DNA of 64,000 bases, taken from Candidatus Omnitrophota bacterium. Lineage in GTDB: Bacteria > Omnitrophota > Gorgyraeia > Duberdicusellales > 4484-171. The position numbers and the translations under genes are program-made. Under the pieces are notes generated by a model. It had not been told where the DNA came from. It made no database searches and saw only the letters and a program-made list of their open reading frames with translations. Shown in pieces: positions 1 through 15,378 of the stretch (its first letter is position 1; every line of letters starts with the position of its first letter). The stretch lies in assembly GCA_021735655.1 (NCBI GenBank), contig JAIPGM010000004.1, forward strand, positions 64,001 through 128,000. The letters run 5' to 3'.

Positions 1-160
1 AAACCTACCGTGGGCCTAGCTTCAGTTTTAAGAAAATCATTCGGCCGGAGAATTTTTCTAACCTGTTCTTTAAATTGGCTAATCGGTAAGGATTTTTTGA
101 ATCGCTTCAAAACAGACTGCGATTGAATTGCTTTTAGAAAAACATTAGCCTTGATCATCA
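1..160 (-). CDS. partial ORF running off the left edge (N-terminal 53 aa, MMIKANVFLKAIQ...); function unknown
   Basis: ATG at 158-160 on the minus strand with no stop before position 1. Lies immediately downstream of a TTGACA-N17-TAGTAT promoter (166-194); possibly leaderless. Missed by the ORF track because it is shorter than 60 aa inside the window. Confidence 0.3.
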
Positions 161-165
161 TATAT

Positions 166-194
166 ATACTATTATAGTCATTACGGCTTGTCAA
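166..194 (-). promoter_or_regulatory. sigma70-like promoter (TTGACA-N17-TAGTAT) sharing the GCGTTGACAAGC box with the pilin promoter at 3931-3960
   Basis: Minus-strand read gcgTTGACAagccgtaatgactataaTAGTATat; -35 at 189-194, -10 at 166-171. Confidence 0.4.
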
Positions 195-210
195 CGCAAT
201 AGGAAGAATT

Positions 211-669
211 TTACTCTACTTCGGAAAAGCCAACAGGACAACTTGTTCCGATATGAATATTTGGGGCAGGAGTGTTTACAGAATTAGATCTACAAAGAAG
301 ACCGTCCTCGTCAATATAATAAGTTTTAGCTTGAGCTAAATTCTGCGGTGTGGCCGTAGCGTAGAAATCAATGTAAGTATTAGGAACCGCTTTAATAATA
401 TATTCCTGCTTTATGCCGCTAGCTAAAGAAACGTCAATATAGGGAGGCTGGGCAGAAGCTAACTCCTGTAAAGTTGCATATTCCGGGTTAGTTGCCCGCC
501 ACTGCACTTCAGCAGAACAAACAATGCGAAGAAGATTCGCCGAAATAGCTGCTCGGGCAGACATCCGCGAACGCAATAAATTAGGTATAGCCAAAGCTGC
601 CAAGACAGATATTATGGTTACAACTATCATAAGCTCCATGAGAGTTATGGCCTTTTTTAATTTTTCCAT
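211..669 (-). CDS. type IV pilin-like protein (prepilin-type N-terminal methylation domain), paralog of the pilin at 3328-3777
   Basis: N-terminus KAITLMELMIVVTIISVLAALAIPN is a class III signal / N-methylation motif. C-terminal YIDEDGLLCRSN...C region and Cys pair are shared with the second pilin. Confidence 0.8.
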   Translation of the reverse strand: MEKLKKAITLMELMIVVTIISVLAALAIPNLLRSRMSARAAISANLLRIVCSAEVQWRATNPEYATLQELASAQPPYIDVSLASGIKQEYIIKAVPNTYIDFYATATPQNLAQAKTYYIDEDGLLCRSNSVNTPAPNIHIGTSCPVGFSEVE

Positions 670-3203
670 TTTATCTTAAAAGCATAAAGGTTAGCTTTAT
701 CTAACGCTATAAACGGTTCAAAGTAATCAAGAGTCTTTGCTTTTGTAAAATAAAGCTTAGCAAGCAAGCTCTCGCCTAAAGCTTTATTCGAAACTCCGAT
801 ACATTTCCACTGACCGTTATCCTTAAAAAAGAAACCACCAGAATTAAATCGCATTGGCTGGCTCATTTTAGATTCATTATAGGTCAAGTTGTCGCCATCA
901 AAAATAAAAGTAAAACTAAGCTCTTTGAATTTTTTTTCCGGCTGTTGAAACATCGTAGCCCGAGAACTATTCAGAGCTAAAACTATGCCATTGTCAAAAT
1001 AAACAGTTCCTGAATCCTCCCTACCTGCCGCCAAATAAAGCGGAAATGTCCACTTCTCAGAAACTACCTCGTTTACCTCTCGGCCAATTCTAGAAAACAT
1101 TACCTCTTCGTAAAGAAGTTCTGCTTCTGACTGCTTTAAACCAAACACCCGAAAAAGATTATTAATCACTTCCAACTTCGGCAGATCTTGATGCTTGATT
1201 ATATAAACTTTGGCAAAATTCCAATTACCTAAAAAAGAAATGGCTGAAATTTTATAGATCATGGTCTCATCAATAAACAAATAGGCTGGTGCCGGAATTT
1301 TAACAAAAATTACATCTTTTATTTTCTTAGCTAATCCTTTAGGTATTTTGTACTCTTTAAAAATAGCCTCGATATTTTTTTCTTCAGATCTCAATATCTT
1401 ATTAAGAAAAACAATTGAGGAAAAGTCGTCACCAAGGAAAGAATTAATTTGATCAAAAAGTGCGTCTGAAGAATTATTGATCATACGTAAAATTCGTACA
1501 GCTTCCTCTTCGTTACCAGCCAAGAAAACCCTCGCCATCCAATAAGTAATCGGTGCATCTTGAATTTGTGGGTCGACTAAGGTACGTCGATTAGCTATCT
1601 CTTTAAACCAGTTGCCATAATCCCACCAACTATTAATTACGCTATTCTCAGGTGTTTTTTCCTTTATTTGGATCATAAGATCATACCAACCATCATTAAG
1701 TATTGGAAACTGTATACTGGCTTGAGAAAAGCTTCTTCGCACCGGAATTGAAACTACAAGGCAAATTAAACAAACCGCACTCAAAATAAGGCCACTTCTA
1801 ACCTTATGGCTACTAACGCCTCTTACCCAATTCGGAAGTAACCGCCAGACATCGCCCAAGCTAACACTTAAAAAAATACCTAAAGGCACAAAAAGGAATT
1901 GAGTAAAACGCAACCCTTTTAGGCTGGCAAAAAACATAACAAAGGTCCAACAGCTAAGAATCAATACTATATCTGCCCGCTTGCCTCTTTTCTCTCGCAA
2001 ATATGTCCAAAGCAAACCAAACAAAGACAACATAAATATAGCCCAACCGCCAGTATATACCGGAATACTTGTAAAGCTTCCTTGCTTTAGCTCTGACACC
2101 GTATATAAAACTGAGGGCCAAATCGAGAAAGAAAGAGAGTTGCCCAATCTTAAATTGCTAGCTAAAGAACCATAAAGAAAAGAAAAAGGTTCAACCTTTG
2201 CAATAAGTAAACAAAAAATTACACTCCCCGATAAGAAAACAGCCAGAGAAACTAGATAGGGTGCATTTTTTTTCTTCAGGGTATCTCTATCTTTAAAATG
2301 TAAACAAAAATTATTAGCCAAGGTCGCAAGAAAAAATATAACGATTACCGCGAAAATAAACCACCAACCAACCCAGCTAAAAGCATATAATCCTAAAAGC
2401 AATGAAGCTAATAAAGAGTACTTAACGATTTGTATAAAAGTTTTGCTTTTTAGCCCTATACCAAGAAACCAAACTATCAACAAAGGAAATAAAACATTAA
2501 ATACATCCTGGTCAAACCAACCAGCAGAACTACGATGAATAAACACCGGAGAAAGACCAATAAAGATAATCGCAAATATTCCGGAAATGTTCGAAAAGAA
2601 ATAACGACAGAATAGGTAAAGAACAATACAAAACACAAAGGTAAGGAAAACCGGCAAATAAAAAACAAATTTCTCCAAAGACAGGTTGGGGAAAATAAAT
2701 GAAACTGCCCTATATAAATAGGCTGAAAAATAATAAAGAAACCTCTCAGGTGGAACTAACCCTCCCTGGGGGGCAAGCATAAACTTATCATAGATCTTGC
2801 CGTCTACTATCTTATTTCCCGGATAACCATTTTCTAAGGTAAGCCTAGTAAAACGTTTTCGACAATAAGGATCAACTTCAAGTAAGTAAGTCTGACCACT
2901 ATCATCTTGATATTGTGACTTTAGCCGCTCGTATTCCTTATTAACTCGCAGTTTAAAGCCTTTAGAATTCTTTCTGCCCTCTTTGACTACCTGCTTAGCA
3001 ATTTTTTCCTTTATCAAAGAGTTATAGCCAGGATACTGCTTTTGGGTAAATTCTCGAGCCTGAGAAAGCATCCGATCCTCTATATTAAGATGGGCTCTTT
3101 TCTTAAGTTGGGGAAAGTTGGCCGGAAATAAACGTAGGTAGACATTTAGCCCCAATACAGTTGCGAGGATTAAAAAAATGGTTACTTTTTTTAGCTTATC
3201 CAT
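657..3203 (-). CDS. oligosaccharyltransferase of the STT3/AglB/PglB family (N-glycosylation OST-like), 848 aa polytopic membrane protein
   Basis: More than 10 predicted TM helices followed by a soluble C-terminal domain containing NSWWDYGNWF (WWDYG hallmark motif). First-loop LEVDPYCRKR resembles the E-x-DPY..YR loop-1 motif of STT3/AglB. The domain order (TM core then WWDYG domain) matches OSTs. Confidence 0.7.
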   Translation of the reverse strand: MDKLKKVTIFLILATVLGLNVYLRLFPANFPQLKKRAHLNIEDRMLSQAREFTQKQYPGYNSLIKEKIAKQVVKEGRKNSKGFKLRVNKEYERLKSQYQDDSGQTYLLEVDPYCRKRFTRLTLENGYPGNKIVDGKIYDKFMLAPQGGLVPPERFLYYFSAYLYRAVSFIFPNLSLEKFVFYLPVFLTFVFCIVLYLFCRYFFSNISGIFAIIFIGLSPVFIHRSSAGWFDQDVFNVLFPLLIVWFLGIGLKSKTFIQIVKYSLLASLLLGLYAFSWVGWWFIFAVIVIFFLATLANNFCLHFKDRDTLKKKNAPYLVSLAVFLSGSVIFCLLIAKVEPFSFLYGSLASNLRLGNSLSFSIWPSVLYTVSELKQGSFTSIPVYTGGWAIFMLSLFGLLWTYLREKRGKRADIVLILSCWTFVMFFASLKGLRFTQFLFVPLGIFLSVSLGDVWRLLPNWVRGVSSHKVRSGLILSAVCLICLVVSIPVRRSFSQASIQFPILNDGWYDLMIQIKEKTPENSVINSWWDYGNWFKEIANRRTLVDPQIQDAPITYWMARVFLAGNEEEAVRILRMINNSSDALFDQINSFLGDDFSSIVFLNKILRSEEKNIEAIFKEYKIPKGLAKKIKDVIFVKIPAPAYLFIDETMIYKISAISFLGNWNFAKVYIIKHQDLPKLEVINNLFRVFGLKQSEAELLYEEVMFSRIGREVNEVVSEKWTFPLYLAAGREDSGTVYFDNGIVLALNSSRATMFQQPEKKFKELSFTFIFDGDNLTYNESKMSQPMRFNSGGFFFKDNGQWKCIGVSNKALGESLLAKLYFTKAKTLDYFEPFIALDKANLYAFKIKWKN

Positions 3204-3269
3204 ATCTTTATCGATATTTTACCATACTAAGTTTAAATCGCAATAACCGGATTGACTTTAAAGGCGGGT

Positions 3270-3306
3270 CGTAAAAATAATAAGGCGGTGGGAATCCCAC
3301 CGCCTT
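3270..3306 (-). terminator. intrinsic terminator downstream of the major pilin gene
   Basis: Stem GGCGGTGGG-aatc-CCCACCGCC at 3284-3304, followed on the minus strand by ATTATTTTTAC. Confidence 0.6.
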
Positions 3307-3327
3307 ATTATTTAATCACTTTTTTGC

Positions 3328-3777
3328 TTACTGCATTTCAGCATAACCAGATGGACAAGCATTCGTACCTTCATGAGCTGCGGCAGCAGTGCCAACAGCA
3401 GTAGATCTACATAGAATTCCATCTTCATCTATATAGAAAGAATGACCTTGTGCAGCAGTATTAACTGCTCTAGCTGCAAAAGTCCCATTAGTGTTGTCGG
3501 TAACAACTGAAAAAGTATATCCCTGTTTAGTTCCACCAGCCAAAGTTGTATCAATATAGGGTGGATTCTCACTGCCTAAAGTTGCCAAGGCAGCATAACC
3601 AGGATTAGTTGCTCGATATTGAATCTCAGCGGCAGCAACTGTATGAGCGGCTGCAGCTGCAGCAGCTTCTTGGGCTGACAAACGAGCCCTCAAAAGATTG
3701 GGTATAGCTATCGCCGCTAAAAGAGCAATGATAGCTACAACGATCATAATTTCAACAAGAGTAAAACCTTTCTTCAT
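3328..3777 (-). CDS. type IV pilin (likely major pilin)
   Basis: MKKGFTLVEIMIVVAIIALLAAIAIPN is a canonical prepilin leader plus N-methyl-Phe motif. C-terminal Cys pair present. Strong SD GGAGGTG 6 nt upstream of ATG. Own near-consensus promoter and terminator make it monocistronic. Confidence 0.9.
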   Translation of the reverse strand: MKKGFTLVEIMIVVAIIALLAAIAIPNLLRARLSAQEAAAAAAAHTVAAAEIQYRATNPGYAALATLGSENPPYIDTTLAGGTKQGYTFSVVTDNTNGTFAARAVNTAAQGHSFYIDEDGILCRSTAVGTAAAAHEGTNACPSGYAEMQ

Positions 3778-3930
3778 CTTAACACCTCCAAATTTTCAAA
3801 TGGCGAGATCCTCTTTTTTAAACTTTTTCACCTCCTTTTCAAAAAAGAACCTCATTAATAAAATAATATAAAGAACACTGTTTCAAGGGCTTAACTTAAG
3901 GCTTCTTGCCTATTTTACCCGACCACTTCA

Positions 3931-3960
3931 AATATAGCATATCGACCTCAGCTTGTCAAC
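3931..3960 (-). promoter_or_regulatory. near-consensus sigma70 promoter for the major pilin (TTGACA-N17-TATATT)
   Basis: Minus-strand read ggcgTTGACAagctgaggtcgatatgcTATATTtg; -35 at 3955-3960, -10 at 3931-3936. Confidence 0.55.
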
Positions 3961-3976
3961 GCCAAGACTTAGCTTA

Positions 3977-5191
3977 TCAATGAACTCCGCCAATATATTG
4001 GGTAATTTTGATTATTGGCAAAAATAAAGAAACTACAATGCCACCAACGACTATTCCCAAAAAGCCAATAACTATAGGCTCGATTAAACTTGATAACCCA
4101 GCAACCATAGCATCAGTCTGCTCTTCATAAAATTGAGCTATCTTAGACAACATCTCCTCCAGCCTTCCGCTTTTTTCACCTACCGAAATCATCCTGGTAA
4201 CCATTGGAGGGAAAACTCCGGTTTTTTCTAAAGGAAAAGAAATCGGCTGTCCTTCTTGAATCGCTGTCCGGGACTCCATAACTGCCTCTTCAATAACAAC
4301 ATTTCCTGAGGTCTTGGCTACAATCTCCAAACACTTTAATATCGGAACTCCGCTACGAACCAAAGTAGAAAATGTCCGGGAAAATTTAGCAATCGCTAAC
4401 TTTCTAGCTAAATTTCCAAATACCGGAAGCCGTAAAATAAATTTATGGAAGTTGCGCTTGCCTTTTGGTGTTTTGATATAACGAGTAAAAAGCATGCCGC
4501 CGCCGCCTAAAATAATCAGTAAGCCAAGGATTGATGTTGGCTTTCGGGCCAAATCCGAAAAACTTATCAAAATTCTAGTAGGCAAAGGTAAAACCCCGCC
4601 AAGAGCAGAAAAAATCTCTTTAAAGGTAGGGATTACCTTAAAGATTAAAAACGAAGTTATGGCTATCGCCATAAGAACAATGATTACCGGATAATAAAGA
4701 GCCGAAATCACTTTCTTCCTTAAAGCACTGCTTTTTTCTAAGTAAAATGAAACCCGATCTAAAATCTCCGGCAAATTCCCAGAAGCTTCCGCTGCTTCAA
4801 CCATGCTTAAATAAATATCAGGAAAAACATCCTTATGCCCAGAAAGGCTGGCTGAAAGAGATGTTCCTTCTTTAACCTCGCGCAAAATAGCCCAGATAAC
4901 TTCCTTAAAATAAGCCTGCTCGGTTTGTTCGCCTAGAATGCCCAAACACTCAACTACCGGAATTCCGCTTTCAATTAAAGTAGTGAATTGACGCGAAAAA
5001 ATTACTAAATCATCGGTTTTTATCTTGCCTTTTCTTTTTTTCCTAGCCTTTTCCTTAGTCTCTTCAATTGAAAAAATAATACTCTCTTGGCCATGAAAAT
5101 GCTCAATAAGCTTTTGTTTAGACTCAGCCTCAATAACCCCCTTGGTTGTTTTTCCTTCCTTGTCCTTAACGATATATGAAAATAACTTCAT
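3977..5191 (-). CDS. pilC: type IV pilus / T2SS inner-membrane platform protein (GspF/PilC family)
   Basis: 404 aa, two T2SS-F repeats, 3 TM segments; sits immediately downstream of the PilB ATPases. Confidence 0.85.
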   Translation of the reverse strand: MKLFSYIVKDKEGKTTKGVIEAESKQKLIEHFHGQESIIFSIEETKEKARKKRKGKIKTDDLVIFSRQFTTLIESGIPVVECLGILGEQTEQAYFKEVIWAILREVKEGTSLSASLSGHKDVFPDIYLSMVEAAEASGNLPEILDRVSFYLEKSSALRKKVISALYYPVIIVLMAIAITSFLIFKVIPTFKEIFSALGGVLPLPTRILISFSDLARKPTSILGLLIILGGGGMLFTRYIKTPKGKRNFHKFILRLPVFGNLARKLAIAKFSRTFSTLVRSGVPILKCLEIVAKTSGNVVIEEAVMESRTAIQEGQPISFPLEKTGVFPPMVTRMISVGEKSGRLEEMLSKIAQFYEEQTDAMVAGLSSLIEPIVIGFLGIVVGGIVVSLFLPIIKITQYIGGVH

Positions 5192-5192
5192 C

Positions 5193-6914
5193 TCACTCCG
5201 AGATTACCCGAATAACTTCCTCTGCCGAAGTTACCCCTTCGCTACATTTTAAAAAACCATCTTCGGCCAAAGATTGGTAACCCTTAAATTCTCGAGCGTA
5301 CTGGATAATCGTTTCCTCAGTTGCTAATTCAATAATCATCTCTCTTATTTTATCATCTAAAAGAATAATTTCCAGTATTGCTACTCTACCTCTATAACCG
5401 CTGTGAGCGCAGTGAGGACAGCCCTTGGCTCGATAAATCTTTTTTGGCTCGTTGTTCCCCATTATTTTACTACTTAATCCAAACCCCAAACGCTTCAATA
5501 AATCCTTATCCGGGATATATCCTTCCTTACATTTAGGACAAAGCTTACGCACTAAACGCTGAGCAGTAAGGGCAACTAACGATGAAGCTAACAGGAATGG
5601 CTCTGTACCCATATCGCGCAGACGAGCTATTGCTCCCACTGCGCTATTGGTATGAAGAGTAGAAAGTATGGTCTCGCCGGTTAAAGAAGCTTTAATCGCT
5701 GTGTCGGCAGTCTCAGCATCTCTGATTTCACCAACCATAATTACATCCGGTGATTGACGCAAAACCGACCGTAAACCAGCAGAAAAAGTTAAGCCGATTT
5801 CAGCATTAACTTGAATTTGAGTTATACCTTCTAAATGATACTCAACCGGCTCTTCAATAGTTATAATATTTTTATCAGTCGAGTTAATCTGATTAATGAT
5901 TGAATAAAGAGTTGTTGATTTACCGCTTCCAGTTGGCCCAGTAACTAACATTATTCCAAAGGGAGCTTTGATTGCCTCTTCAAACAAAGCCAGCGGCCCG
6001 GGCGAAAACCCTAGTTTTTTTAACCCTATCGATAAGCTCTCTCTATCGAGCACCCGGAGAACAAACTTCTCGCCAAAGTGGGTAGGTAAACTAGAAACTC
6101 TAAAATCTATTTCCCGAGACTCAAATTTAACCCGAAATCTACCGTCTTGAGGAAGCCGCGACTCAGTAATGTCTAGAGATGAAATGATCTTCAAGCGAGC
6201 AATTACGGCTTGCTGGCTGGTTTTAGGAAAACTAAACTCATCGGCCAAGGATCCATCTACTCGATAACGAATTAATAATTTATCTTCACAAGGCTCAATA
6301 TGGATATCTGATGCCCGCTTCTTTAAGGCATTATAAATAATAACATCAATTGCTCTCACGACCGGAGGATGCTTGCTTTCTGAAATTGAACTCTCTAGAT
6401 CTTGTTTAGACTCTTGATGCAACAATCCTTCGCCAACCGAATCAAGAGATACATCGCTACTAAGGGTTTCGGAAATATGTTCAGCCGACTTGTATAAAAA
6501 ATTTATGGCTCTACTTATATCCTTCTCACGAGAAAGAACCAAATCAACCTTTTCGGCATTGGTAATAATCTTTATGTCGTCATGAGTAATAACATCTAAA
6601 GGATTGGCTGTGGCCAAAGTCAGAACATTGCCGATCTTGCATAAAGGAAGAACCTTATGCTTAATTGCTATATCTTTAGGTAATAGCTCTTGATTCTTGT
6701 AAGGTAGTTTATATTTTTTTAAATCAAGAAAAGGGATCTTAAGTTCTTTGGAAAACATCAATAAGAGCTCTTCTTCGCTGATAAGCCCGCTCTCAATCAA
6801 AAGGCTCCTTAAATCAGCATAGGTACGAGCTCGTTTGGCAATATCGATAAGGACCTTCTTGTCACATTTTTTGTCCTCTTGAATGTACTTTATTATCTTC
6901 TCTTTTATGGTCAT
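5193..6914 (-). CDS. pilB: type IV pilus assembly ATPase (GspE/PilB family) with N-terminal GSPII_E_N/MshEN-like domain
   Basis: Walker A GPTGSGKST, Walker B DVIMVGEIRD, His box STLHTNSA, tetracysteine CPKC...CPHC; 573 aa. Confidence 0.9.
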   Translation of the reverse strand: MTIKEKIIKYIQEDKKCDKKVLIDIAKRARTYADLRSLLIESGLISEEELLLMFSKELKIPFLDLKKYKLPYKNQELLPKDIAIKHKVLPLCKIGNVLTLATANPLDVITHDDIKIITNAEKVDLVLSREKDISRAINFLYKSAEHISETLSSDVSLDSVGEGLLHQESKQDLESSISESKHPPVVRAIDVIIYNALKKRASDIHIEPCEDKLLIRYRVDGSLADEFSFPKTSQQAVIARLKIISSLDITESRLPQDGRFRVKFESREIDFRVSSLPTHFGEKFVLRVLDRESLSIGLKKLGFSPGPLALFEEAIKAPFGIMLVTGPTGSGKSTTLYSIINQINSTDKNIITIEEPVEYHLEGITQIQVNAEIGLTFSAGLRSVLRQSPDVIMVGEIRDAETADTAIKASLTGETILSTLHTNSAVGAIARLRDMGTEPFLLASSLVALTAQRLVRKLCPKCKEGYIPDKDLLKRLGFGLSSKIMGNNEPKKIYRAKGCPHCAHSGYRGRVAILEIILLDDKIREMIIELATEETIIQYAREFKGYQSLAEDGFLKCSEGVTSAEEVIRVISE

Positions 6915-6915
6915 C

Positions 6916-8619
6916 TTATTTTAATGGTTCATCTGGCGCAGTAACTTTAAGTACTTCTTCTAAAGTAGTAATTCCTTTTTCGACTTTCAAAATTCCATCC
7001 TGGCGCAAAGTACGCATACCTAGGTTACGGGCTTTTTTCTTAATGATACTTTCTGAAGCCGAAGAGTTTACTAAATTTTTTATTTGTTGATCAACGTGCA
7101 GATACTCACAAAGGGCAACTCTTCCCTTATAGCCAGTATTCTGGCAATTTCTACAGCCTTTTGATTTATAAATTAAAACTTCTTTATTAATAAGATATCG
7201 CTCGCGAACCGAATCAGATAATTCAAATTCCTCTTTACACTTAGGACACAACATTCGCACTAAACGCTGAGTGAGCACCCCAACCAATGTCGAAGAAAGC
7301 AAAAATGGCTCAACTCCCATATTAATAAGACGAGTGATTGAACCTGCGCTGGTCGTAGTATGAAGTGTGGAAAGAACTAAGTGCCCGGTTAAAGCTGACT
7401 TTATGGCCATGTCAGCAGTGTCAGCATCTCTGACCTCACCGATCATTATTATGTCCGGATCCTGACGCAATATTGAACGTAAACAGGCAGAAAAAGTCAA
7501 ATGAATCGAAGGATTAATACTGGTTTGGTTGATCCCTTTTAATTGGTATTCTATCGGATCTTCTACGGTAACTATGTTCTTCTCCGGTGCGTAAACATGT
7601 TTAATCACCGAATAAAGGCTGGTGGTCTTACCGGCCCCAGTAGGACCACAAACCAAAAGAAGACCGTGAGACTTAAGACTATCTTCCCGTAACTGTTTTA
7701 AAACATCTTCTTCAAACCCCAAAAGATCCAAATTAAGTAAAGCAGTTGCCTTATCTAAAACTCTAATCGCGACTTTTTCTCCAACACTAGTAGGAAGAAC
7801 TGAAACTCGAAAATCAACATTTTTATTTGAAATTCTGCTCCGAAATCTTCCTTCTTGAGGCAAACGGTGTTCGGCAATGTTTAAATTACACATTACCTTT
7901 ATCCGTGATATAGCAAAAGGATGAATTTTTTTTGAAAAGGTATCGATTTCTTGCAAAATTCCGTCAATCCGAAATCGAATCCGACTTACGTTTTCTAAGG
8001 GTTCTATCAGAATATCTGAAGCGGCCTCTTCAACTGCCTTAGTTAAAAAAGAATTGGTAAACTTTATTACCGGAGCCTCTTCAATTGAACGGACGATTTC
8101 TTCTTGAGTTACTTCCTTTTTGACCTTTTTTACAAACTCTAAGCTTTCGGCATGCTGCCCCTTAATAATATCCTCAATCGAAACCATATGGACCTGAGAA
8201 TAATGCATTGAGATGGCTTCTTTTATTTCTGAAAGCGGGGCAATTATCGGATTTACTTCACACTTAGTAATTTTTTTAATATCGTCAATAACTAAAATAT
8301 CTAAAGGATCACCCATGGCCAAGGTTAAGGTGTTGCCAATCTTGCCGATTGGTAAAACCTTATGGTCTCGGGCGACTCTTTCCGGAACTAAAGATATGAT
8401 CTCCTTGGGAATATTAAGATTAAGGATTCGAACCGGTGGGATTGAAAGATAGCTAGATAGTAAATCGAGAAGATCTGGTTCTTTTATGTAGCCTAACTGC
8501 ATAAGCTGCTCAACTAAAGAACCGCCCTTCTCCTTGTGGACGACTAAGACTTTATCTAAATCCTGTTTAGTTAAAAGTCCTTTTTCTAATATGTAATCGG
8601 TAAATTTTTTACTCTTCAT
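6916..8619 (-). CDS. second GspE/PilB-family secretion ATPase paralog with N-terminal GSPII_E_N domain
   Basis: Walker A GPTGAGKTT, DIIMIGEVRD, TLHTTTS, CPKC...CRNC; 567 aa. Tandem to pilB with a 1-nt spacer. Confidence 0.85.
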   Translation of the reverse strand: MKSKKFTDYILEKGLLTKQDLDKVLVVHKEKGGSLVEQLMQLGYIKEPDLLDLLSSYLSIPPVRILNLNIPKEIISLVPERVARDHKVLPIGKIGNTLTLAMGDPLDILVIDDIKKITKCEVNPIIAPLSEIKEAISMHYSQVHMVSIEDIIKGQHAESLEFVKKVKKEVTQEEIVRSIEEAPVIKFTNSFLTKAVEEAASDILIEPLENVSRIRFRIDGILQEIDTFSKKIHPFAISRIKVMCNLNIAEHRLPQEGRFRSRISNKNVDFRVSVLPTSVGEKVAIRVLDKATALLNLDLLGFEEDVLKQLREDSLKSHGLLLVCGPTGAGKTTSLYSVIKHVYAPEKNIVTVEDPIEYQLKGINQTSINPSIHLTFSACLRSILRQDPDIIMIGEVRDADTADMAIKSALTGHLVLSTLHTTTSAGSITRLINMGVEPFLLSSTLVGVLTQRLVRMLCPKCKEEFELSDSVRERYLINKEVLIYKSKGCRNCQNTGYKGRVALCEYLHVDQQIKNLVNSSASESIIKKKARNLGMRTLRQDGILKVEKGITTLEEVLKVTAPDEPLK

Positions 8620-9060
8620 TTAAGGGTAGAATCTACCTATACCACTACGTATGTCTGAAGGGGTACTAACAAATATTTGGATATCGCAATGGGTCAGGTC
8701 TTCTAAATCTTCAATGGCATGAATATTAAGAGGATTGGCCATAGCTAAAGTCAAAGTGTTCCCTATTTTATCTATTGGAAGTAAACAATAATGACCGCAA
8801 ACGTTTTTGGGGACTAAAGAAACTACCTCTTCGGAAACTTGATAGTTCTCTAAAGGAAGATAGGGATAACCAAACTGTAAAGACAAGCAATAGGCAATAT
8901 CTTCCTCTTTGGCAAAGCCTAAACTTACAATGACTTCACCGATTAAACCTCCTTGACGTTTCTGGCTTGTTATAGCTTCCTTCAGTTGATCGGGAGTAAT
9001 TACCCCTCTTTCTGCTAAAATCTGCCCCAAAGGCTTATCTATTTTTTTGTGAGATTTCAT
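8620..9060 (-). CDS. standalone MshEN-type (T2SS-E N-terminal) domain protein, putative c-di-GMP receptor
   Basis: 146 aa with no ATPase domain. Carries two tandem 24-aa motifs PLGQILAERGVITPDQLKEAITSQ and LIGEVIVSLGFAKEEDIAYCLSLQ separated by the 5-aa spacer KRQGG. This matches the MshEN c-di-GMP-binding motif RLGxxLLxxGLLxxxxLxxxLxxQ x2. Confidence 0.65.
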   Translation of the reverse strand: MKSHKKIDKPLGQILAERGVITPDQLKEAITSQKRQGGLIGEVIVSLGFAKEEDIAYCLSLQFGYPYLPLENYQVSEEVVSLVPKNVCGHYCLLPIDKIGNTLTLAMANPLNIHAIEDLEDLTHCDIQIFVSTPSDIRSGIGRFYP

Positions 9061-10380
9061 TTAATTATCTTGCTTATTTTTCTTAAGCTTGGTGAATTTA
9101 ATCAACTCTTTGGCAGTTGTCCCGTCCAATGGGCTTGCTGCCACCGAAAAAGAAAGCTTAACTTTTCCCTGAGTTATTACCTTAAGAGCGGCTTCTGCCT
9201 TCTTCGCTGCCTCTTGAGAATGACGCTTATTGCTTTCTATAATAATGGCACCTAAGGTTTGGGGGCCTATTCTTCCGGCGATATCAATCGGACGCAAACT
9301 TCTCTTAAAGCCATGGGCGATTTTTTTAAGTATCTTCTCAGATTCAATCAAACCAAATTCTTTCTGATATTTATCAGGATCTAACAAACTAACCGAGATA
9401 AAGCCACAGGGACGCTGATAAATGCTTGAGCGCCTTATTTCTTCATCAAGCCTTCTAATAATTACCTTTTCATTATATAGATCAGTCAAATCGTCAAGCA
9501 CCTCTAAATCTTCAATCTTTGAAGAAAGACGTCGATGCTCCCAAATAAGAGTTACATTTTGAGAAAATAGGTTCAAAACATCTATTTCGTCTTTGCTAAA
9601 ATTATACTCATCCTGATTATTGCCGACTCCGACGATACCAACAACTATGCCTTTAGCAACAACCGGGACTAAAGCCATATTCACAAGCCCCAATTCTTTA
9701 GCCCACCCCAGATAAGGCTTAGGTTTATTGCTAGAATCAACAACTGACAGCTTCATCCTCTGAGGTAAATCACTATTACGATTTTCAATAAAAGAATCGA
9801 TAATCGGTATTTCTACTCCTAAAAAGGAAATTGGTTTTAGCTTACTTTGAGCATCATCTTTTAAGCTACAAAAACAAACATTAGTTTCCAAAATCTTCTT
9901 TAAATGCTCACTTAAAAACTTAATAATCTCTTCAGCCGGAGCATCCTTAGAAAATAAATCATTGGCCTGTAGAATAGCTGAGAGGACAAGAACTTTCTTA
10001 GTGACCTCTCGGTTGAGTTCTTCGGTTTTTTGAGTAAAGTCTTTTAATTCTTCAAACCCGCTTTTAACTTTATCCGAAAGTACGTTAATAACTGTCTCTA
10101 GGCTCTGGACTTCATCTGAAATTTCTGGAGCCTGTTCGCCAATATCTTCTAAAGCAGTCTTTGATTGTGTATATAGTCTAATAATTGATGAAAAAACCTC
10201 AAAAACAACTCGCCATCCCAAAATTACAACTAATAATAATGTCGTAGCTGCAAAAAAAGATATCTGGTATCCGAATAAATAGTAAAGAAGCACAATCAAC
10301 GGAATGAGAGAAACCAAAGCAATCGAAATCCAAATCCTTCTGGCTAGACTTAAATTAGTTATTCTATTTTTTGTTTTCAC
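9061..10380 (-). CDS. membrane protein with GAF-like domain and degenerate GGDEF domain retaining an RxxD I-site (PelD-like c-di-GMP receptor candidate)
   Basis: Two N-terminal TM helices and a coiled-coil. C-terminal domain reads DDLTDLYNEK...VSLLDPDKYQKEFG...SLRPIDIAGRIGPQTLGAII, i.e. the GGDEF fold with GGDEF replaced by GPQTL but RPID kept 5 residues upstream. Confidence 0.5.
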   Translation of the reverse strand: MKTKNRITNLSLARRIWISIALVSLIPLIVLLYYLFGYQISFFAATTLLLVVILGWRVVFEVFSSIIRLYTQSKTALEDIGEQAPEISDEVQSLETVINVLSDKVKSGFEELKDFTQKTEELNREVTKKVLVLSAILQANDLFSKDAPAEEIIKFLSEHLKKILETNVCFCSLKDDAQSKLKPISFLGVEIPIIDSFIENRNSDLPQRMKLSVVDSSNKPKPYLGWAKELGLVNMALVPVVAKGIVVGIVGVGNNQDEYNFSKDEIDVLNLFSQNVTLIWEHRRLSSKIEDLEVLDDLTDLYNEKVIIRRLDEEIRRSSIYQRPCGFISVSLLDPDKYQKEFGLIESEKILKKIAHGFKRSLRPIDIAGRIGPQTLGAIIIESNKRHSQEAAKKAEAALKVITQGKVKLSFSVAASPLDGTTAKELIKFTKLKKNKQDN

Positions 10381-10662
10381 TCTGCCCCCTCTTATAATAA
10401 TATAGTATTTATACGCTTACTACAAAATACTAACACCTTTCATTGCTAGTGTCAACTCGACTGAACCGAAAACATATTATATTTACTGTAATTTTAGACA
10501 AAACCGCTAGTTTAATTCAACTAAAGTAAGCCCCCTTTGGCTTCATGATCTTACCTCAGTTAAGAGGATAAATATTCTGAGCATCCCTCCAAGAAATAAA
10601 CTGAGCATCGGCATCTAAGCCCAAGGGCTCTATTGCCAATATGTCATCTTTACTGTATTTAT

Positions 10663-11532
10663 CTATTCAATATCTTGCCAAGACACTGTCTCCGAAGATG
10701 AGAACCCCAAATTAGCTAAAGCTGCACTTATCAGGTCAGGGTCATAAGCTAAATCGACACTGCCCTTAATGGTAGTATCTATACCGGCGCCGCTTTCAGC
10801 AAGAACTGACCCGCTGATAGCAACATTACCGGTAATTGAAAGTTCCCCGATAACATAAATTATACCTTCAAAATTTTCAGTTCCCGACATGTGAACGTCC
10901 CCTTCTATGACTAAAATCCCGCTGCCCTGTAAATTTCCTGCCGTTGTCAAAGTTACCCCCGGAGAAACCTCAACCCAGGTTATGCCGTCAACCGGCTCAC
11001 CAAAAGTGCTTTCATCGTAAAGGTGCGTGGCCATATTCTTTACTGATTCTTTACTATTTGCAAACAAATCCGAAAAATTTAAAACCGCTTGTTCATTGAA
11101 CGAATCCTCAGGAGTAATGGTATATGCCTGGCCTTTAATTACTAAATCACCTGTTGTCTCAATCGCGTATTGGAACTTGGAGGAATCAGGAGGATCTACT
11201 CTTACAATTGCGCGTAAAGACTTTTCGATTGTTGCCCCGGAAGATAAAGTAACTGTGCCGGTTGAGTCGATCTGATAATACCAATTACCTAACGCTTCTG
11301 TGGTTGCCGCATAACAATAGTTACTTTTCATACATCCAGATGTATTGTCGGGTAGATTACCCTTGCTCATTGCAATACCAGCCTCGGCCAGCCAAAAAGC
11401 TTCGACAGCCCCTACATATCTTGTGGTAAGCTTGTTCTCATTTATAGTTTTTAAAAAAAGTGCTGTCGATAGCATAATCATAATCAACATCATTAAAAGA
11501 CTAAGGATTAAAACACCGCCTCTTTTATTCAT
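10663..11532 (-). CDS. PilX-N-terminal-domain pilus assembly / minor pilin-like protein
   Basis: N-terminus MNKRGGVLILSLLMMLIMIMLSTALFL is the PilX_N pattern; repetitive beta-rich C-terminal region. Confidence 0.5.
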   Translation of the reverse strand: MNKRGGVLILSLLMMLIMIMLSTALFLKTINENKLTTRYVGAVEAFWLAEAGIAMSKGNLPDNTSGCMKSNYCYAATTEALGNWYYQIDSTGTVTLSSGATIEKSLRAIVRVDPPDSSKFQYAIETTGDLVIKGQAYTITPEDSFNEQAVLNFSDLFANSKESVKNMATHLYDESTFGEPVDGITWVEVSPGVTLTTAGNLQGSGILVIEGDVHMSGTENFEGIIYVIGELSITGNVAISGSVLAESGAGIDTTIKGSVDLAYDPDLISAALANLGFSSSETVSWQDIE

Positions 11533-12154
11533 TTCTTATTTTCACATCCAGTTCTAAGGTAATTGGAAGAAGGTCCCTCTCCCGAACCTGACTTTGGCCG
11601 GTGATCGCGACAACCATCCTCTTACTATTATTAAGATTATCTTTAAAATTATCCGTCGTTCTCGCGCCGCCAGTATCGATAGTATAAAAAGGCGGCTCTG
11701 TTATGCCTATAAACTCCCTGCTTTCTGTTGTATTGTTGCCGCTATCAATAACACTGCGCGTAATCTTACTTAAAGTATTATCGTAATCATACTCAATATA
11801 GTCCAGACTTAATATATAATTACCGGTAGTTGTATTTATCCCGTCAACCGTCCGAAATTTAATATACGAAGCAGAAGGGTTATTGTTGGCTATGTCCCAG
11901 CAAGGAGCCTGGCGGATATCTCTAACTATTAAATTCCCTATCGACCTTATCTTAGCCTGAAAATCTATTTTGGCAGTCATTACCGGAAAAACTGATTCTC
12001 CTGCTTGAAGAACTCTAACCACTGCAGTAGCAATAAGTGACAGCACCAGAGAAGCAATCAATATCTCCGTAAGGGTAAATGCTTTCTGCTTAGCGATGAA
12101 TGCATGTTGAGAGCTCAAAATATCTTGTTTTCTGCCTTTCAGACCAGCTAACAT
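11525..12154 (-). CDS. prepilin-type N-terminal cleavage/methylation domain protein (pseudopilin/minor pilin)
   Basis: KAFTLTEILIASLVLSLIATAVV motif. The listed start overlaps the upstream gene by 65 nt, so the true start is probably internal or an alternative codon. Confidence 0.6.
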   Translation of the reverse strand: MLAGLKGRKQDILSSQHAFIAKQKAFTLTEILIASLVLSLIATAVVRVLQAGESVFPVMTAKIDFQAKIRSIGNLIVRDIRQAPCWDIANNNPSASYIKFRTVDGINTTTGNYILSLDYIEYDYDNTLSKITRSVIDSGNNTTESREFIGITEPPFYTIDTGGARTTDNFKDNLNNSKRMVVAITGQSQVRERDLLPITLELDVKIRNE

Positions 12155-12497
12155 TTGCTATTACCTCCGTAAGCGACGTTTCTGTACCTGCCGCCTGAAC
12201 AGTAACATTCTCATCTATCAAATTATCAAACACCGGCGGAGAATAAACATCTATATCCCCATAAGATAAGGTCTTGATCTCCTCTAATACACATTGAGCA
12301 TCGTTAGCCGCAGCTACTAAGTTATTGCTTGATTCATTGAGAAAAGCGCAAGAAACAAAAGCCATAATCAACCCACTAGCAACTATCATTATAATAGCCG
12401 CAGCTATCATCACTTCCAATAGAGTAAACCCAGCCCGCTTAGAAAAACTCTTACGCATAGCTTTATTTATTTGGCCTTTTTCCTTAAAATTCCTCAT
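12090..12497 (-). CDS. prepilin-type N-terminal cleavage/methylation domain protein (GspG/PilV-like pseudopilin)
   Basis: KRAGFTLLEVMIAAAIIMIVASGL motif; 135 aa. Confidence 0.65.
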   Translation of the reverse strand: MRNFKEKGQINKAMRKSFSKRAGFTLLEVMIAAAIIMIVASGLIMAFVSCAFLNESSNNLVAAANDAQCVLEEIKTLSYGDIDVYSPPVFDNLIDENVTVQAAGTETSLTEVIANVSWSERQKTRYFELSTCIHR

Positions 12498-12597
12498 AAC
12501 CCAATATTTAACCTACCCTCTCAATTCAATTTTACCATTTAAGGGGAGACCTTTCAACTAGACTAAAAAAGTAAACTCAGTTAAGGATTTTTAGTCC

Positions 12598-13113
12598 TTA
12601 GTAATCCTTAACAATGCCGATAATTTCATCAACAAAGGTTTCCTCGGCACTTAAGAGATTAAGGTGATGTTTAAGAAGGAGGCGTTGGTGAACTGGAAAT
12701 TCTTCTTCAATCGCAATGTTCTCAGACAACCATTGCTTTACTTTCTCTAAGAATCGTTTCCTCAAACGCAAGCGGGCCATTACTTCTTTTGTATCTAAAA
12801 AAGGAAGGAAATATAAAGGAATGTCGATATCGATAAACGGCCGCTTCTCGCTCAATAAAGCTTCTAGGGCCAGCCTTAAAAATTCTTTATTACCATGAGG
12901 AGTAATAGAGTATACGTATCTAGGCAGTCTTCCTTTATCTTTAGCAGTAGTCTTTTTGATGAGCCCTTCTCGGGCCATAATCTTTAAAGGATAGTAGATT
13001 GATTTATTTTCAAGAGAGGTAAAAACAGCGAGGTCTTTCTTTATAATCTTTTTTATCTCGTAACCGTGTCGTGGGCTATTTTTTAAAATACCTAATATTA
13101 TTAGGCGTTGCAT
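12598..13113 (-). CDS. PadR family transcriptional regulator
   Basis: N-terminal wHTH MQRLIILGILKNSPRHGYEIKKIIKK...IYYPLKIMAREGLI is typical of PadR. Confidence 0.8.
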   Translation of the reverse strand: MQRLIILGILKNSPRHGYEIKKIIKKDLAVFTSLENKSIYYPLKIMAREGLIKKTTAKDKGRLPRYVYSITPHGNKEFLRLALEALLSEKRPFIDIDIPLYFLPFLDTKEVMARLRLRKRFLEKVKQWLSENIAIEEEFPVHQRLLLKHHLNLLSAEETFVDEIIGIVKDY

Positions 13114-13116
13114 CCG

Positions 13117-14070
13117 TTACTCGTTAAAAACTCCCATCTTTCTGTAACGCTGTTGTCTAGAGCTTAGCAATTGCGGTACAGAGAGCTGAGTAAGTTCGTC
13201 TAAATTTTTATTAACTGCTTTTTTTAAATTACCGGCTGATGCTTCATACTCCCAATGAGCGCCACCCTCAACTTCAGGAATCACCCCATCAATGAGCCCC
13301 AAAGAAAGAAGCTCCGGAGCAGTAAGCTTTAAAACATCAGCTGCTTTTTCACGTTTAGATGCATCTTTCCAAAGAATTGCTGCGCAACCTTCAGGTGAAA
13401 TAACCGAATAATAAGAATACTCCATAACCAAAACCCTGTCTCCAACACCGATACCTAAAGCCCCGCCGCTTCCACCTTCGCCGATGACTACGACTAAAAT
13501 CGGCACTTTGAGCAAAAACATATCTCTAATATTTTCAGCAATTGCCTGAGCCTGGCCCCTCTCTTCGGCCCCTACTCCCGGGTAAGCTCCCGGAGTATCA
13601 ACTAAACAAAGAATTGGCATTGAAAAACGCTCAGCCAATTTCATCACCCGCATAGCTTTGCGATATCCTTCCGGATGAGCACAGCCAAAATTACGCTCAA
13701 TGTTTTCCTTGGTATCTTTACCCTTTTGATGCCCGATGATAGCAATTTTTCTATCATCCAGCTTAGCAAGACCTGAGATTAAAGCTAGATCATCACCATA
13801 AAGACGATCGCCACAAAGAGAAACAAAATCTTTAAAAATTAAATTTATATAATCAAGGGTGGTTGGCCGATTAGGATGACGGGCGATTTGAACTTTTTGC
13901 CAAGCCGATAGGCCAGAATAAACTTCTTTCTTCAAAGTTTGCAGCTTCTCTTCCAAATCGGAAATCTCAGAGTTAAGATCAACCGCCTTATCCTTGGAGA
14001 ACTTTCGTAACTCCTCAATTTTATTCTCTAGCTCAATAATTGGTTTTTCAAAATCCCAAGTCTGCATCAT
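13117..14070 (-). CDS. accA: acetyl-CoA carboxylase carboxyltransferase subunit alpha
   Basis: MMQTWDFEKPIIELENKIEELRK... and the conserved CT-alpha core (GGSGGALGIGVGD, oxyanion region); 317 aa. Confidence 0.9.
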   Translation of the reverse strand: MMQTWDFEKPIIELENKIEELRKFSKDKAVDLNSEISDLEEKLQTLKKEVYSGLSAWQKVQIARHPNRPTTLDYINLIFKDFVSLCGDRLYGDDLALISGLAKLDDRKIAIIGHQKGKDTKENIERNFGCAHPEGYRKAMRVMKLAERFSMPILCLVDTPGAYPGVGAEERGQAQAIAENIRDMFLLKVPILVVVIGEGGSGGALGIGVGDRVLVMEYSYYSVISPEGCAAILWKDASKREKAADVLKLTAPELLSLGLIDGVIPEVEGGAHWEYEASAGNLKKAVNKNLDELTQLSVPQLLSSRQQRYRKMGVFNE

Positions 14071-14075
14071 AATAT

Positions 14076-14906
14076 CTAATCAATGATTAACACTTCGGTT
14101 CCTATCGGAACAATATCAAAAAGTTCCTCAACCTCTTGATTCCTCATCCGTATGCAGCCCAAGGTAATCTGTTTACCTAATTCTTGAGGTTTGGTTGTTC
14201 CATGAATGCCGTACCCTTTTATATCTTCTCCGTTTGCATCTTTACCCTCTAAACCCATCCAACGAGAACCCAAAATATTTTCTGGATCTGCAGGATCAAC
14301 GATAGCCCCGGTCCTAAACCAAGTAGGATTTCTAAGCTTATTCCGATCGATAGTAAACTTACCTACCGGAGTTGAGTTATCCTTCCCCGTAGAAACAATA
14401 TAGGTTTTTACTACTTCACCTTTTCGTTTTAAAAAAAGTAAATTTTGCGACTTATCAACTACTATCGAAAATTCACAAGAAGCTACCTTTAACTTTTGCT
14501 TAGGACGAATCGTATCCGACGACAAATTATTAGAACGTTTAATTAGACTTACCGTGGTTTTAAATTTCTTGGAAATTTTTGTTAGAGTATCCTTGGGTTG
14601 AACAACATAGGTAGTGCTGCACTGATCAAGATCTTTTGAAAAAATAATTCTTATATTGATATCTTCAATCTTCTGGCGAATACTATTGATTAGGTTAGGA
14701 TCATCGACATTTTCTAAACTTTCCTGATACAACCTCTTGGCCTCTTTGAACGATCCAACCGAAAAAGCTGATTCAGCTTCCTTTAAAACTGCCGATTTAA
14801 AAATAGTTTTTTTAGGTATGGTTGATTTTTTTGAAGATAGGGCTATAAGCGTAAAAATTATCACCATACTGATACTGACAATAATAACTATGTGAATTTT
14901 CTTCAT
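14076..14906 (-). CDS. L,D-transpeptidase with LysM domain
   Basis: LysM (YVVQPKDTLTKISKKF) plus YkuD catalytic motif GYGIHGTTKPQELGKQITLGCIRM; N-terminal TM/signal anchor. Confidence 0.8.
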   Translation of the reverse strand: MKKIHIVIIVSISMVIIFTLIALSSKKSTIPKKTIFKSAVLKEAESAFSVGSFKEAKRLYQESLENVDDPNLINSIRQKIEDINIRIIFSKDLDQCSTTYVVQPKDTLTKISKKFKTTVSLIKRSNNLSSDTIRPKQKLKVASCEFSIVVDKSQNLLFLKRKGEVVKTYIVSTGKDNSTPVGKFTIDRNKLRNPTWFRTGAIVDPADPENILGSRWMGLEGKDANGEDIKGYGIHGTTKPQELGKQITLGCIRMRNQEVEELFDIVPIGTEVLIID

Positions 14907-14928
14907 TAAGCCTTTCCTTTTATTTTAA

Positions 14929-15378
14929 TTATCGGTAAAAGAAAAGAGTTACTACTATGCCGACTATGGCCCCGATAAAAACTTCTATCGGAGTATGACC
15001 AACAAGTTCTCGCAAACGAGATTCTCCAATCTTCTTTCCTTCCTGAAAATCCTCAACCATTCGATTAAGCACTTTTGCCTGGAAGCCTATCGAACGCCGC
15101 CAAGTTTGGGCATCAAACATATTAATCACCGCGAACAAAACACTCATCGCAAAAAGAATAGATCCGGTTCCAGCCTCTTTGGCCACGCAAACAACCAAAG
15201 AAACCACTGCGGCACTATGAGCTGATGGCATGCCGCCAGTACCCATAACCCAAAAAAAGTTAAACTTCTTATCTTTTATGAGCCCGGTAAAAATCTTTAA
15301 AACTTGGGCTACGAAAATTGTGGTTACAATAGCCCAAAAAGCCCTATTTCTATATATTCCTTCCCAAAACCCCTGCAT
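14929..15378 (-). CDS. divergent PAP2 / DUF212 (YuiD-like) membrane protein
   Basis: GGMPSAHSAAVVSL motif and 4 TM segments, typical of pfam02681. Confidence 0.6.
   Translation of the reverse strand: MQGFWEGIYRNRAFWAIVTTIFVAQVLKIFTGLIKDKKFNFFWVMGTGGMPSAHSAAVVSLVVCVAKEAGTGSILFAMSVLFAVINMFDAQTWRRSIGFQAKVLNRMVEDFQEGKKIGESRLRELVGHTPIEVFIGAIVGIVVTLFFYR

Follow-up and report, generated by a model that had tools for sequence, protein, structure and literature searches.

A separately encoded MshEN domain as a probable c-di-GMP-sensing subunit of a type IVa pilus extension motor in Omnitrophota

Using a combination of profile searches, structure prediction and comparison of gene order, we describe here a protein of 146 amino acids (aa) encoded in a 64-kb stretch of DNA from a Candidatus Omnitrophota bacterium (contig JAIPGM010000004.1; hereafter the window), together with two tandem PilB/GspE-type ATPases, which we call PilBa and PilBb, and a platform protein, PilC. 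We propose that this small protein, which carries an intact recognition motif for cyclic di-GMP (c-di-GMP) beside two ATPases whose own motifs have decayed, is probably a separately encoded c-di-GMP-sensing subunit of the Omnitrophota type IVa pilus extension motor formed by PilBa, PilBb and PilC. Local gene order was read from positions 1–16000 of the window, where the open reading frames (ORFs) lie on the minus strand throughout; the features on which the argument turns are the following.

8620–9060, minus strand: stand-alone MshEN protein, 146 aa (PF05157, NF053729)
8962–9033, minus strand: c-di-GMP motif 1, residues 10–33, PLGQILAERGVITPDQLKEAITSQ (translation, regular expression, profile)
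8947–8961, minus strand: spacer KRQGG, residues 34–38 (translation)
8875–8946, minus strand: c-di-GMP motif 2, residues 39–62, LIGEVIVSLGFAKEEDIAYCLSLQ (translation, regular expression)
6916–8619, minus strand: PilBa, PilB/GspE-type ATPase, 567 aa (PF00437 and PF05157)
5193–6914, minus strand: PilBb, second PilB/GspE-type ATPase, 573 aa (PF00437 and PF05157)
3977–5191, minus strand: PilC/GspF-type platform protein, 404 aa (PF00482, two repeats; NCBIfam PilC/GspF matches)

An earlier note on this DNA had placed the 146-aa gene after the ATPases, which is true in plus-strand coordinates only: since all genes lie on the minus strand, it is transcribed first and stands upstream of both, its stop codon TAA directly abutting the ATG of PilBa.

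The small protein is an MshEN domain only, as the earlier note had recognized, matching PF05157 at 75.1 bits (cut-off 23.1) and no other domain. PF05157 spans its C-subdomain, and its N-subdomain is spanned by NF053729, a curated 53-position NCBIfam model ("c-di-GMP_motif", cyclic di-GMP-binding domain, MshE-related; cut-off 38 bits) that scores 61.6 bits at E 4e-17 over model positions 1–53 of 53, an end-to-end match that rules out chance. Residues 10–62 read PLGQILAERGVITPDQLKEAITSQ-KRQGG-LIGEVIVSLGFAKEEDIAYCLSLQ, or 24 + 5 + 24 residues, and translation, regular expression and NF053729 all bear out the two 24-residue MshEN motifs with an exact 5-residue spacer that had been noticed before. 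Aligned with the motif of Wang et al. 2016, the protein fits its relaxed form, in which Leu is permitted at position 1, again with a spacer of five. An AlphaFold2 (AF2) model built from 38 homologs, with a mean predicted local distance difference test (pLDDT) score of 91.5, has helices at residues 11–17, 23–36, 40–46 and 52–63 followed by a beta/alpha part, so that the predicted architecture is a four-helix c-di-GMP subdomain joined to a T2SSE_N1-type alpha/beta subdomain. The expected helical fold is thereby reproduced: the best Foldseek match in the PDB is the c-di-GMP-bound MshEN structure 5HTL (E 4e-12, TM-score 0.77–0.81), with further matches to the GSPII domains of PilF, the N-domain of Xanthomonas PilB, 2BH1 and 4PHT. 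By sequence, the closest solved relatives are PilF and the N-termini of PilB from Geobacter and Myxococcus.

The residues that would contact the ligand are strongly conserved. Across the 38 homologs, L11, G12, L26 and Q33 of motif 1 and L39, G41, I55, L59 and Q62 of motif 2 are invariant, and the counterparts of the ligand-contact positions defined in Vibrio cholerae MshE (VcMshE; PMC5013675), namely L11, G12, L26, L/I30, Q33, L39, I40, G41, I55, L59 and Q62, vary little or not at all. In VcMshE the guanines are hydrogen-bonded by backbone amides at the motif Gly positions, and with the substitutions G11L and G40I the ligand response is lost (PMC5013675). At position 1 the small protein departs from the RLG opening in both motifs, with Pro in motif 1 and Leu in motif 2. 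Similarly, Thermus PilF GSPII-C, a binding-competent domain, begins KPLGE, and the high-affinity GSPII-B natively carries Leu at motif position 1 (PMC11731258); PilF K167L binds with a dissociation constant of 2 nM, a higher affinity, which led the authors of that study to widen the consensus to (R/K/L)LG (PMC11731258). In the AF2 model, helix 1 begins just after Pro10, which caps it at the start of the motif, and since this start resembles that of the binder GSPII-C, a blocking helix extension of the GSPII-A type appears unlikely. Judged by its sequence, the 146-aa protein is a complete and apparently binding-competent MshEN domain for which c-di-GMP binding is predicted.

The two ATPases have taken the opposite course. 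Both match PF00437 T2SSE (E 1e-130 and 1e-133) and carry an MshEN domain, recognized by PF05157, at the N-terminus. Each has the Walker A and B motifs as well as two pairs of CxxC, and the two sequences share 42% identity. The earlier description of two tandem full-length PilB-like ATPases of about 570 aa, not PilT-like and endowed with tetracysteine motifs and N-terminal GSPII_E_N domains, therefore stands, with ORFs of 573 and 567 aa. Their N-domains, however, no longer present an intact ligand site. NF053729 scores 34.2 bits on PilBa, under its cut-off, and gives no match on PilBb; the relaxed Wang motif is matched by neither N-domain; and the tandem motif is passed by 0 of 25 PilBa and 0 of 24 PilBb orthologs. 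PilBa reads G3→T and Q24→H in motif 1 and G3→V and Q24→Y in motif 2, motif 1 of PilBb is unrecognisable, and the substitutions in the two ATPases fall on the Gly positions equivalent to those of the binding-abolishing G11L and G40I of Vibrio MshE. The degenerate motifs claimed for both ATPases (Gly to Thr, Gln to His or Tyr) were thus rightly described for PilBa, where Val is also found in place of Gly, whereas PilBb is more decayed than had been claimed.

In other respects both ATPases show the PilB hallmarks (GSPII/MshEN, Walker A/B, His box, tetracysteine), except for the first histidine of the PilBb His box. In the loci compared (L001–L024, L028, L029 and L034; PilBb residue ~412), PilBa orthologs are present in 24 loci and their His box reads TGH in 23 of 23, while the 22 PilBb orthologs read TGE (20), TGT (1) or TGQ (1), with Q or T in the deeper clades. 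This systematic loss suggests that PilBb may differ catalytically or regulatorily. Neither ATPase reaches the cut-off of an equivalog model: the PilB model TIGR02538 gives 573.5 and 578.5 bits for PilBa and PilBb against a cut-off of 675.65, GspE model scores are similar to the PilB scores and likewise under cut-off, and the TfpB model NF053534 gives 450.6 and 437.6 bits against 850. The pair belongs to the PilB/GspE family, exact PilB equivalence not being established.

The small protein is not peculiar to this window. It is identical to K9L86_04525, a hypothetical protein of a Candidatus Omnitrophica metagenome-assembled genome (MAG), and has more than 1,600 homologs; among the best 120, nearly all are 144–156 aa long, with 68–93% identity and the same stop, and 109 have the tandem motif with a spacer of exactly 5 residues, its sequence variable. 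A frameshift or split-gene artefact is ruled out by the number of homologs, their uniform length and stop, and the complete N-domain that PilBa has of its own. All family members bearing a source name are labelled Omnitrophota, and the arrangement was not found outside that phylum, although no systematic search for it was made. A scan of species-representative genomes, annotated by ORFs and BLAST, gave 26 Omnitrophota loci (the whole synteny sample comprises about 35 loci, mostly MAGs). In 22 of the 26 the order is a transmembrane-GAF-GGDEF-like gene, MshEN, PilBa, PilBb, PilC and pilin, the remaining 4 ending before the ATPase pair, and the order persists in loci whose small protein is as little as 55% identical. 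Stand-alone members at a greater distance (37–45% identity) lie in related contexts.

L029 (GC 65%): PilT-like, MshEN, PilBa, PilBb, PilC, pilin, PilM, PilN, PilO
L033: transmembrane-GAF, PilT-like, MshEN, PilB; locus cut short after PilB
L034 (GC 30%): MshEN, PilBa, PilBb, REC-HD-GYP, PilC, pilin
L035: transmembrane-GGDEF, MshEN, one PilB only, PilC, PAS kinase, sigma-54 regulator, pilins

The conserved synteny for which the earlier note had proposed to look, MshEN-PilBa-PilBb-PilC, is thus present in about 30 Omnitrophota loci, with the small protein as little as 37% identical. Several further features of these clusters are worth recording. In the deeper clades (L029, L033, L034 and L035) the MshEN-PilB cluster lies immediately 3' of mreB-mreC-mreD-pbp2-rodA, and a PilT-like ATPase often stands just 5' of the MshEN gene (L023, L029, L031 and L033), a place in which it is absent in the clade of the window. 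Four close relatives at 48–70% identity, P0002 (218 aa), P0010, P0014 and P0125 (215 aa, from an NCBI Omnitrophota MAG), have an extra N-terminal four-helix MshEN_N bundle with a tandem motif of its own; such versions may bind two c-di-GMP.

Constraint, expressed as mean pairwise identity over 18 genomes, separates the small protein from the N-domains of its neighbors. Its identity is 74% over the whole length, 77% in the four-helix ligand part and 75% in the C-terminal subdomain, compared with 74–76% for the ATPase catalytic cores and 57% and 49% for the four-helix parts of PilBa and PilBb, respectively. The ligand part of the small protein is as conserved as the ATPase cores, whereas the same subdomain drifts in the neighboring ATPases. 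Among 48 short MshEN-only representatives drawn from all sequence space, only 6 have the tandem motif, which marks the Omnitrophota family as unusual in keeping the c-di-GMP site. These observations bear on the possibility that the small protein binds no ligand and persists as a structural remnant, or as a scaffold for protein contacts in the manner of XpsE or PilF GSPII-A. Motif-based prediction has failed previously (PMC12002112), and some distant members do have degenerate motifs. Yet the ligand-contact residues are invariant in the family while the neighboring subdomains drift, the protein passes the curated NF053729 model, Pro10 is predicted to cap helix 1 as in the binder GSPII-C, and c-di-GMP turnover genes co-locate with the cluster. 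We accordingly regard a ligand-blind protein as improbable.

A functional link between the small protein and PilBa comes from gene fusions in one sub-lineage. Many MshEN architectures were returned when 1.8 billion cluster representatives were searched, MshEN-only proteins being common. One of the proteins returned, P0132 (765 aa), joins an MshEN domain 42.6% identical to the 146-aa protein, through a low-complexity linker of ~50 residues, to a motif-less MshEN domain and an ATPase. The ATPase portion is closer to PilBa than to PilBb (454 vs 432 bits), and the gene 3' of it is closer to PilBb than to PilBa (496 vs 434 bits) and is followed by PilC. A search with P0132 found two further fusions only, P0274 and P0275, the second an NCBI Omnitrophota MAG protein likewise with PilBb and PilC downstream; among the best 120 PilBa-type matches these 3 are fused and the other ~117 are unfused PilB-type ATPases of ~574 aa. 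Fusion of an MshEN domain of the small-protein type to PilBa is evidence of a classical kind for a joint function of the two proteins.

The fusions also speak to the direction of evolution. In a neighbor-joining tree of MshEN domains, domain 1 of P0132 is placed in the stand-alone clade and domain 2 among the PilBa N-domains. A second tree, of the ATPase cores, divides PilBa from PilBb as two clades, both of which include low- as well as high-GC Omnitrophota, and the fused P0132, P0274 and P0275 form a single clade nested within unfused PilBa (both trees are distance-based, without support values). Every branch of the phylum that was sampled contains unfused genes. Given the nested single clade and the 3 fused among 120 PilBa-type matches, the earlier idea that the sensing module had been split off from the ATPases is not supported as worded: each ATPase retains a full N-terminal MshEN-fold domain, so that the 146-aa protein is an extra copy, and the unfused state looks ancestral. 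The simplest history is an old PilB duplication, a separate MshEN gene ancestral in the phylum and one later fusion to PilBa, with no recent split. What survives of the earlier proposal is the trans-acting adaptor itself, since synteny, the PilBa fusion and the co-location of c-di-GMP genes point to an input in trans. A rule that the ATPase-proximal MshEN domain is degenerate in multi-MshEN PilBs, considered separately, does not hold in general: in most of the (MshEN)2 proteins sampled, motifs persist in one domain, the other or both.

We hypothesize that cyclases and phosphodiesterases, often encoded in the same cluster, would make or remove c-di-GMP, and that c-di-GMP would bind the 146-aa protein at its four-helix bundle, where the 24-5-24 site is intact. 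The liganded protein would then act on PilBa, most likely by docking beside its ligand-blind N-domain at the PilM/PilC interface, an arrangement modelled on the extra N-terminal MshEN domains of multi-domain PilBs, and this docking would license pilus assembly. The PilBa N-domain has lost the ligand site yet kept its fold, which presumably serves in docking to the PilM/PilC platform. The sign of the small protein's effect, activation versus inhibition, is one that we infer.

A serious alternative, to which we give a minor share of our confidence and which we think unlikely, reverses that sign. The small protein would here be a c-di-GMP-controlled competitor, an inhibitor or clutch, whose T2SSE_N1-type subdomain takes the PilM/PilC docking site and so selects which ATPase engages the platform. 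Its C-terminal subdomain is conserved (75%) like the ligand part, which points to a conserved protein partner; GspE N1 domains bind GspL, and 2BH1 and 4PHT are among the fold matches; PilB N1 domains are thought to touch the stator (PMC11656802); and two extension-type ATPases need coordinating. However, the fusion better suits a helper acting on PilBa in cis, and a fused form could not be titrated independently. Somewhat more broadly, and as a speculative possibility that we doubt, the system could be a previously undescribed three-part extension motor in which PilBa and PilBb, non-equivalent and both blind to c-di-GMP, are joined by a detachable MshEN subunit serving as a c-di-GMP-operated clutch that switches motor states. 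The c-di-GMP-bound subunit would be recruited to, or released from, PilBa, and the whole, fed locally by a cyclase or phosphodiesterase of the same cluster, would govern how these ultra-small bacteria, which are probably host-dependent, attach to their hosts. A role in host attachment has been proposed for Omnitrophota type IVa pili (PMC10066038).

Immediately upstream of the MshEN gene lies a further candidate component of c-di-GMP signalling.

9061–10380, minus strand: 439-aa membrane protein with a transmembrane region, GAF and a GGDEF-type domain (PF00990 and GAF)

At the active-site position its GGDEF domain reads GPQTL, aligned to GGEEF of the active cyclase 6ZXM, and at canonical spacing it has the I-site RPID, aligned to RKSD of 6ZXM. 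Orthologs have GPxxL, SDDGF and similar sequences at the active site, and RxxD is kept in most of the 25 aligned. By these residues, the 439-aa protein has a dead diguanylate cyclase active site and a retained I-site. The gene in the same position in L035 (7090–8004) has the membrane region at the N-terminus in common with it (34% over 121 aa) and carries a canonical RYGGDEF and an RRYD I-site, without GAF; its counterpart in L033 (3922–4800) consists of the transmembrane-GAF part only. The upstream gene family is variable with a common N-terminal membrane module, and looks like a cyclase turned receptor or scaffold. PelD-type receptors have a transmembrane-GAF-degenerate GGDEF architecture with an I-site and are encoded in polysaccharide operons. 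The 439-aa protein is like PelD in domain order, dead A-site and retained RxxD, and unlike it in being encoded in a pilus operon and in having no detectable sequence match; a search of PDB sequences gave no PelD match, so that homology to PelD was rejected and the likeness is kept as an architectural analogy only.

The small protein might then pair mainly with this upstream protein, as local source and receptor or as two receptors, with an output other than the ATPases, such as pilin export, glycosylation or exopolysaccharide. The two genes abut (TAA-ATG), the L035 homolog is an intact cyclase, and the I-site is kept in the degenerate GGDEF form. However, the upstream gene is not universal: in L028, L029, L031 and L034 a PilT-like ATPase or nothing takes its place, whereas PilBa always follows MshEN, and the fusion partner is PilBa and not the GGDEF protein. 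We consider such a pairing quite unlikely, and both it and the ligand-blind scaffold less likely than the competitor or clutch.

Other enzymes of c-di-GMP turnover appear in related clusters. A REC-GGEEF cyclase gene lies directly 3' of PilBb in the single-cell genome of L024 (10887–11783), and a REC-HD-GYP phosphodiesterase gene with intact HD and HHERYDGKGYP lies between PilBb and PilC in L034 (11821–12861), suggesting that the pilus cluster repeatedly recruits c-di-GMP-making or -degrading enzymes. In the window, a regular-expression search for GG[DE]EF, EAL and HD-GYP gave no match; it was too strict, because Pfam later found HAMP-GGDDF and PilZ proteins there. The PilZ protein (136 aa, 24962–25372, minus strand) has intact RxxxR and DxSxxG motifs, and the HAMP-GGDEF-domain protein (27893–29359, minus strand) has the motif GGDDF, with LTKLPGN ahead of it. 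The two genes belong to a large exopolysaccharide cluster at 20560–43300 that also encodes a Wzz/tyrosine-kinase-like protein, two Wzy_C proteins, at least 10 glycosyltransferases and an ABC exporter. Because of these two proteins and the turnover genes in pilus clusters, the organism very likely uses c-di-GMP.

Several points weigh against the small protein as a c-di-GMP-sensing subunit of the motor. PilF GSPII-A has a near-consensus motif and does not bind, owing to an N-cap helix and inter-subdomain contacts (PMC12002112), so the motif alone is no proof; c-di-GMP binding by the 146-aa protein and its contact with an ATPase are both what we infer. The distant members in L031 and L033 are without Gly10 or Gln24, and ligand binding may therefore not extend to the whole family. 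The fused proteins have Thr at position 2 of motif 1 and a 4-residue insertion in motif 2, imperfect motifs that make ligand binding by the fused copies uncertain. No canonical GG(D/E)EF cyclase was found within the 64-kb window. Finally, the ATPase rate of Clostridium perfringens PilB2 is unchanged by c-di-GMP binding (PMC11656802), so that what MshEN sensing brings about is unclear even where sensor and ATPase are fused.

MshEN is a well-known and widespread c-di-GMP receptor, and multi-MshEN ATPases and MshEN fusions have been catalogued, with no MshEN-only architecture among the entries of that catalogue (Wang 2016, Suppl. Table 4). The small protein has the same domain, two-subdomain fold and 24-5-24 motif as Vibrio cholerae MshE (5HTL) and other ATPases with a single MshEN domain, Myxococcus PilB and Clostridium PilB2, and the locus resembles Vibrio MshE-type systems in having a pilus extension ATPase beside PilC and pilins. 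In contrast to MshE, Myxococcus PilB and PilB2, where the ATPase carries the sensor covalently as its N-terminus, the sensor is here a separate 146-aa chain and the ATPase sites are lost. Similarly, Thermus thermophilus PilF and the (MshEN)2-4-T2SSE ATPases have several MshEN domains per motor, binders and non-binders alike (GSPII-A does not bind, B and C do), and the KPLG and Leu-first motif variants are common to the small protein and to PilF GSPII-C and GSPII-B, respectively. Whereas the copies of PilF lie in one chain, the presumed binding copy is here a separate gene with a stop between, except in P0132, P0274 and P0275, and there are two ATPase paralogs.

A receptor acting in trans has precedents of a different kind. 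In the FimX-PilZ-PilB system of Xanthomonas citri (PMC8389850) and in FimX-PilB of Pseudomonas, a separate c-di-GMP receptor acts in trans on a non-binding PilB N-domain. There the receptor is a degenerate EAL protein with a PilZ adaptor, while the MshEN protein is homologous to the N-domain that would be its target, so that the likeness is one of function and not of homology. Acinetobacter baylyi likewise uses two PilB-family extension-type ATPases, PilB and TfpB, for one type IVa pilus; PilBa and PilBb differ in being adjacent paralogs and not TfpB equivalogs, and no MshEN cofactor is known in A. baylyi. Small proteins made of MshEN-type modules only include Pseudomonas aeruginosa PA3740, for which c-di-GMP binding has been confirmed experimentally (Wang 2016, Suppl. 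Table 3 footnote), and Cyanothece cce_1044. The second subdomain of PA3740 is highly diverged, cce_1044 has two four-helix bundles, and neither is described in the sources consulted as a pilB-linked subunit.

In the literature, including the MshEN papers and a review of PilB cofactors from 2024 (PMC11656802), we found no stand-alone MshEN partner of pilus ATPases that have lost their sites, and our search turned up neither a description of a phylum-wide MshEN-PilBa-PilBb-PilC unit nor a discussion of c-di-GMP signalling in Omnitrophota; the main Omnitrophota genomics paper mentions neither PilB nor cyclic dinucleotides. A separate MshEN sensor with decayed ATPase sites is a variant on a known regulatory scheme, not a new principle. 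Its interest lies in the fact that the effect of c-di-GMP binding to the N-terminal MshEN domain on the PilB motor is still unclear (PMC11656802), and a separate soluble sensor beside a ligand-blind motor would make sensing and motor function separable in vitro. The system would further be a second case, after A. baylyi, of two extension-type ATPases on one pilus, conserved phylum-wide, and would provide a first concrete c-di-GMP output for Omnitrophota.

The remaining features of the pilus region are as follows.

12598–13113, minus strand: PadR regulator (Pfam)
10663–12497, minus strand: three minor-pilin/PilX-like genes, 5' of the module (N_methyl and PilX_N matches)
10427–10455, minus strand: weak sigma-70-like promoter match ahead of the 439-aa gene, TTGACA-17-TAGTAT, 10/12 matches (sequence scan)
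3328–3777, minus strand: type IV pilin, 149 aa, N-terminal methylation motif (PF07963; syntenic 3' of PilC)
3275–3313, no strand assigned: terminator-like GC-rich hairpin, 18-bp stem, T/A tracts, 3' of the pilin gene (sequence scan)
657–3203, minus strand: STT3-type oligosaccharyltransferase, 848 aa (PF02516, E 2e-37)
211–669, minus strand: second pilin (Pfam)

The five central genes run end to end, with TAA-ATG junctions twice and then 1-nt gaps. Counts of promoter and terminator sites in the region are not above those of shuffled sequence, and the two matches listed give a weak hint of operon limits. PilC and pilins are encoded with PilBa and PilBb in the window; PilMNO were not found in the scanned parts of it, and PilM, PilN and PilO lie 3' of the cluster in L029.

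Two further observations concern neighboring functions. Two proteins whose MshEN domains are 46–48% identical to the 146-aa protein and look intact in their motifs carry other partners: P0162 (454 aa; named DnaA by JGI) is fused to a DnaA-like AAA+ module, and P0160 (723 aa) combines MshEN with a PilZ-like RxxxR stretch, identified by eye, and a large C-terminal region. These fusions hint that c-di-GMP may act on the initiation of replication and on proteins of the pilus tip. Within the window, two type IV pilin genes flank that of an oligosaccharyltransferase of the STT3/PglB/AglB type, which has the catalytic motif WWDYG; the enzyme gene keeps this position in the related loci L001, L002, L004, L016 and L020. 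Its placement suggests pilin glycosylation by an enzyme of the N-oligosaccharyltransferase type, whose action on type IV pilins would, to our knowledge, be unusual.

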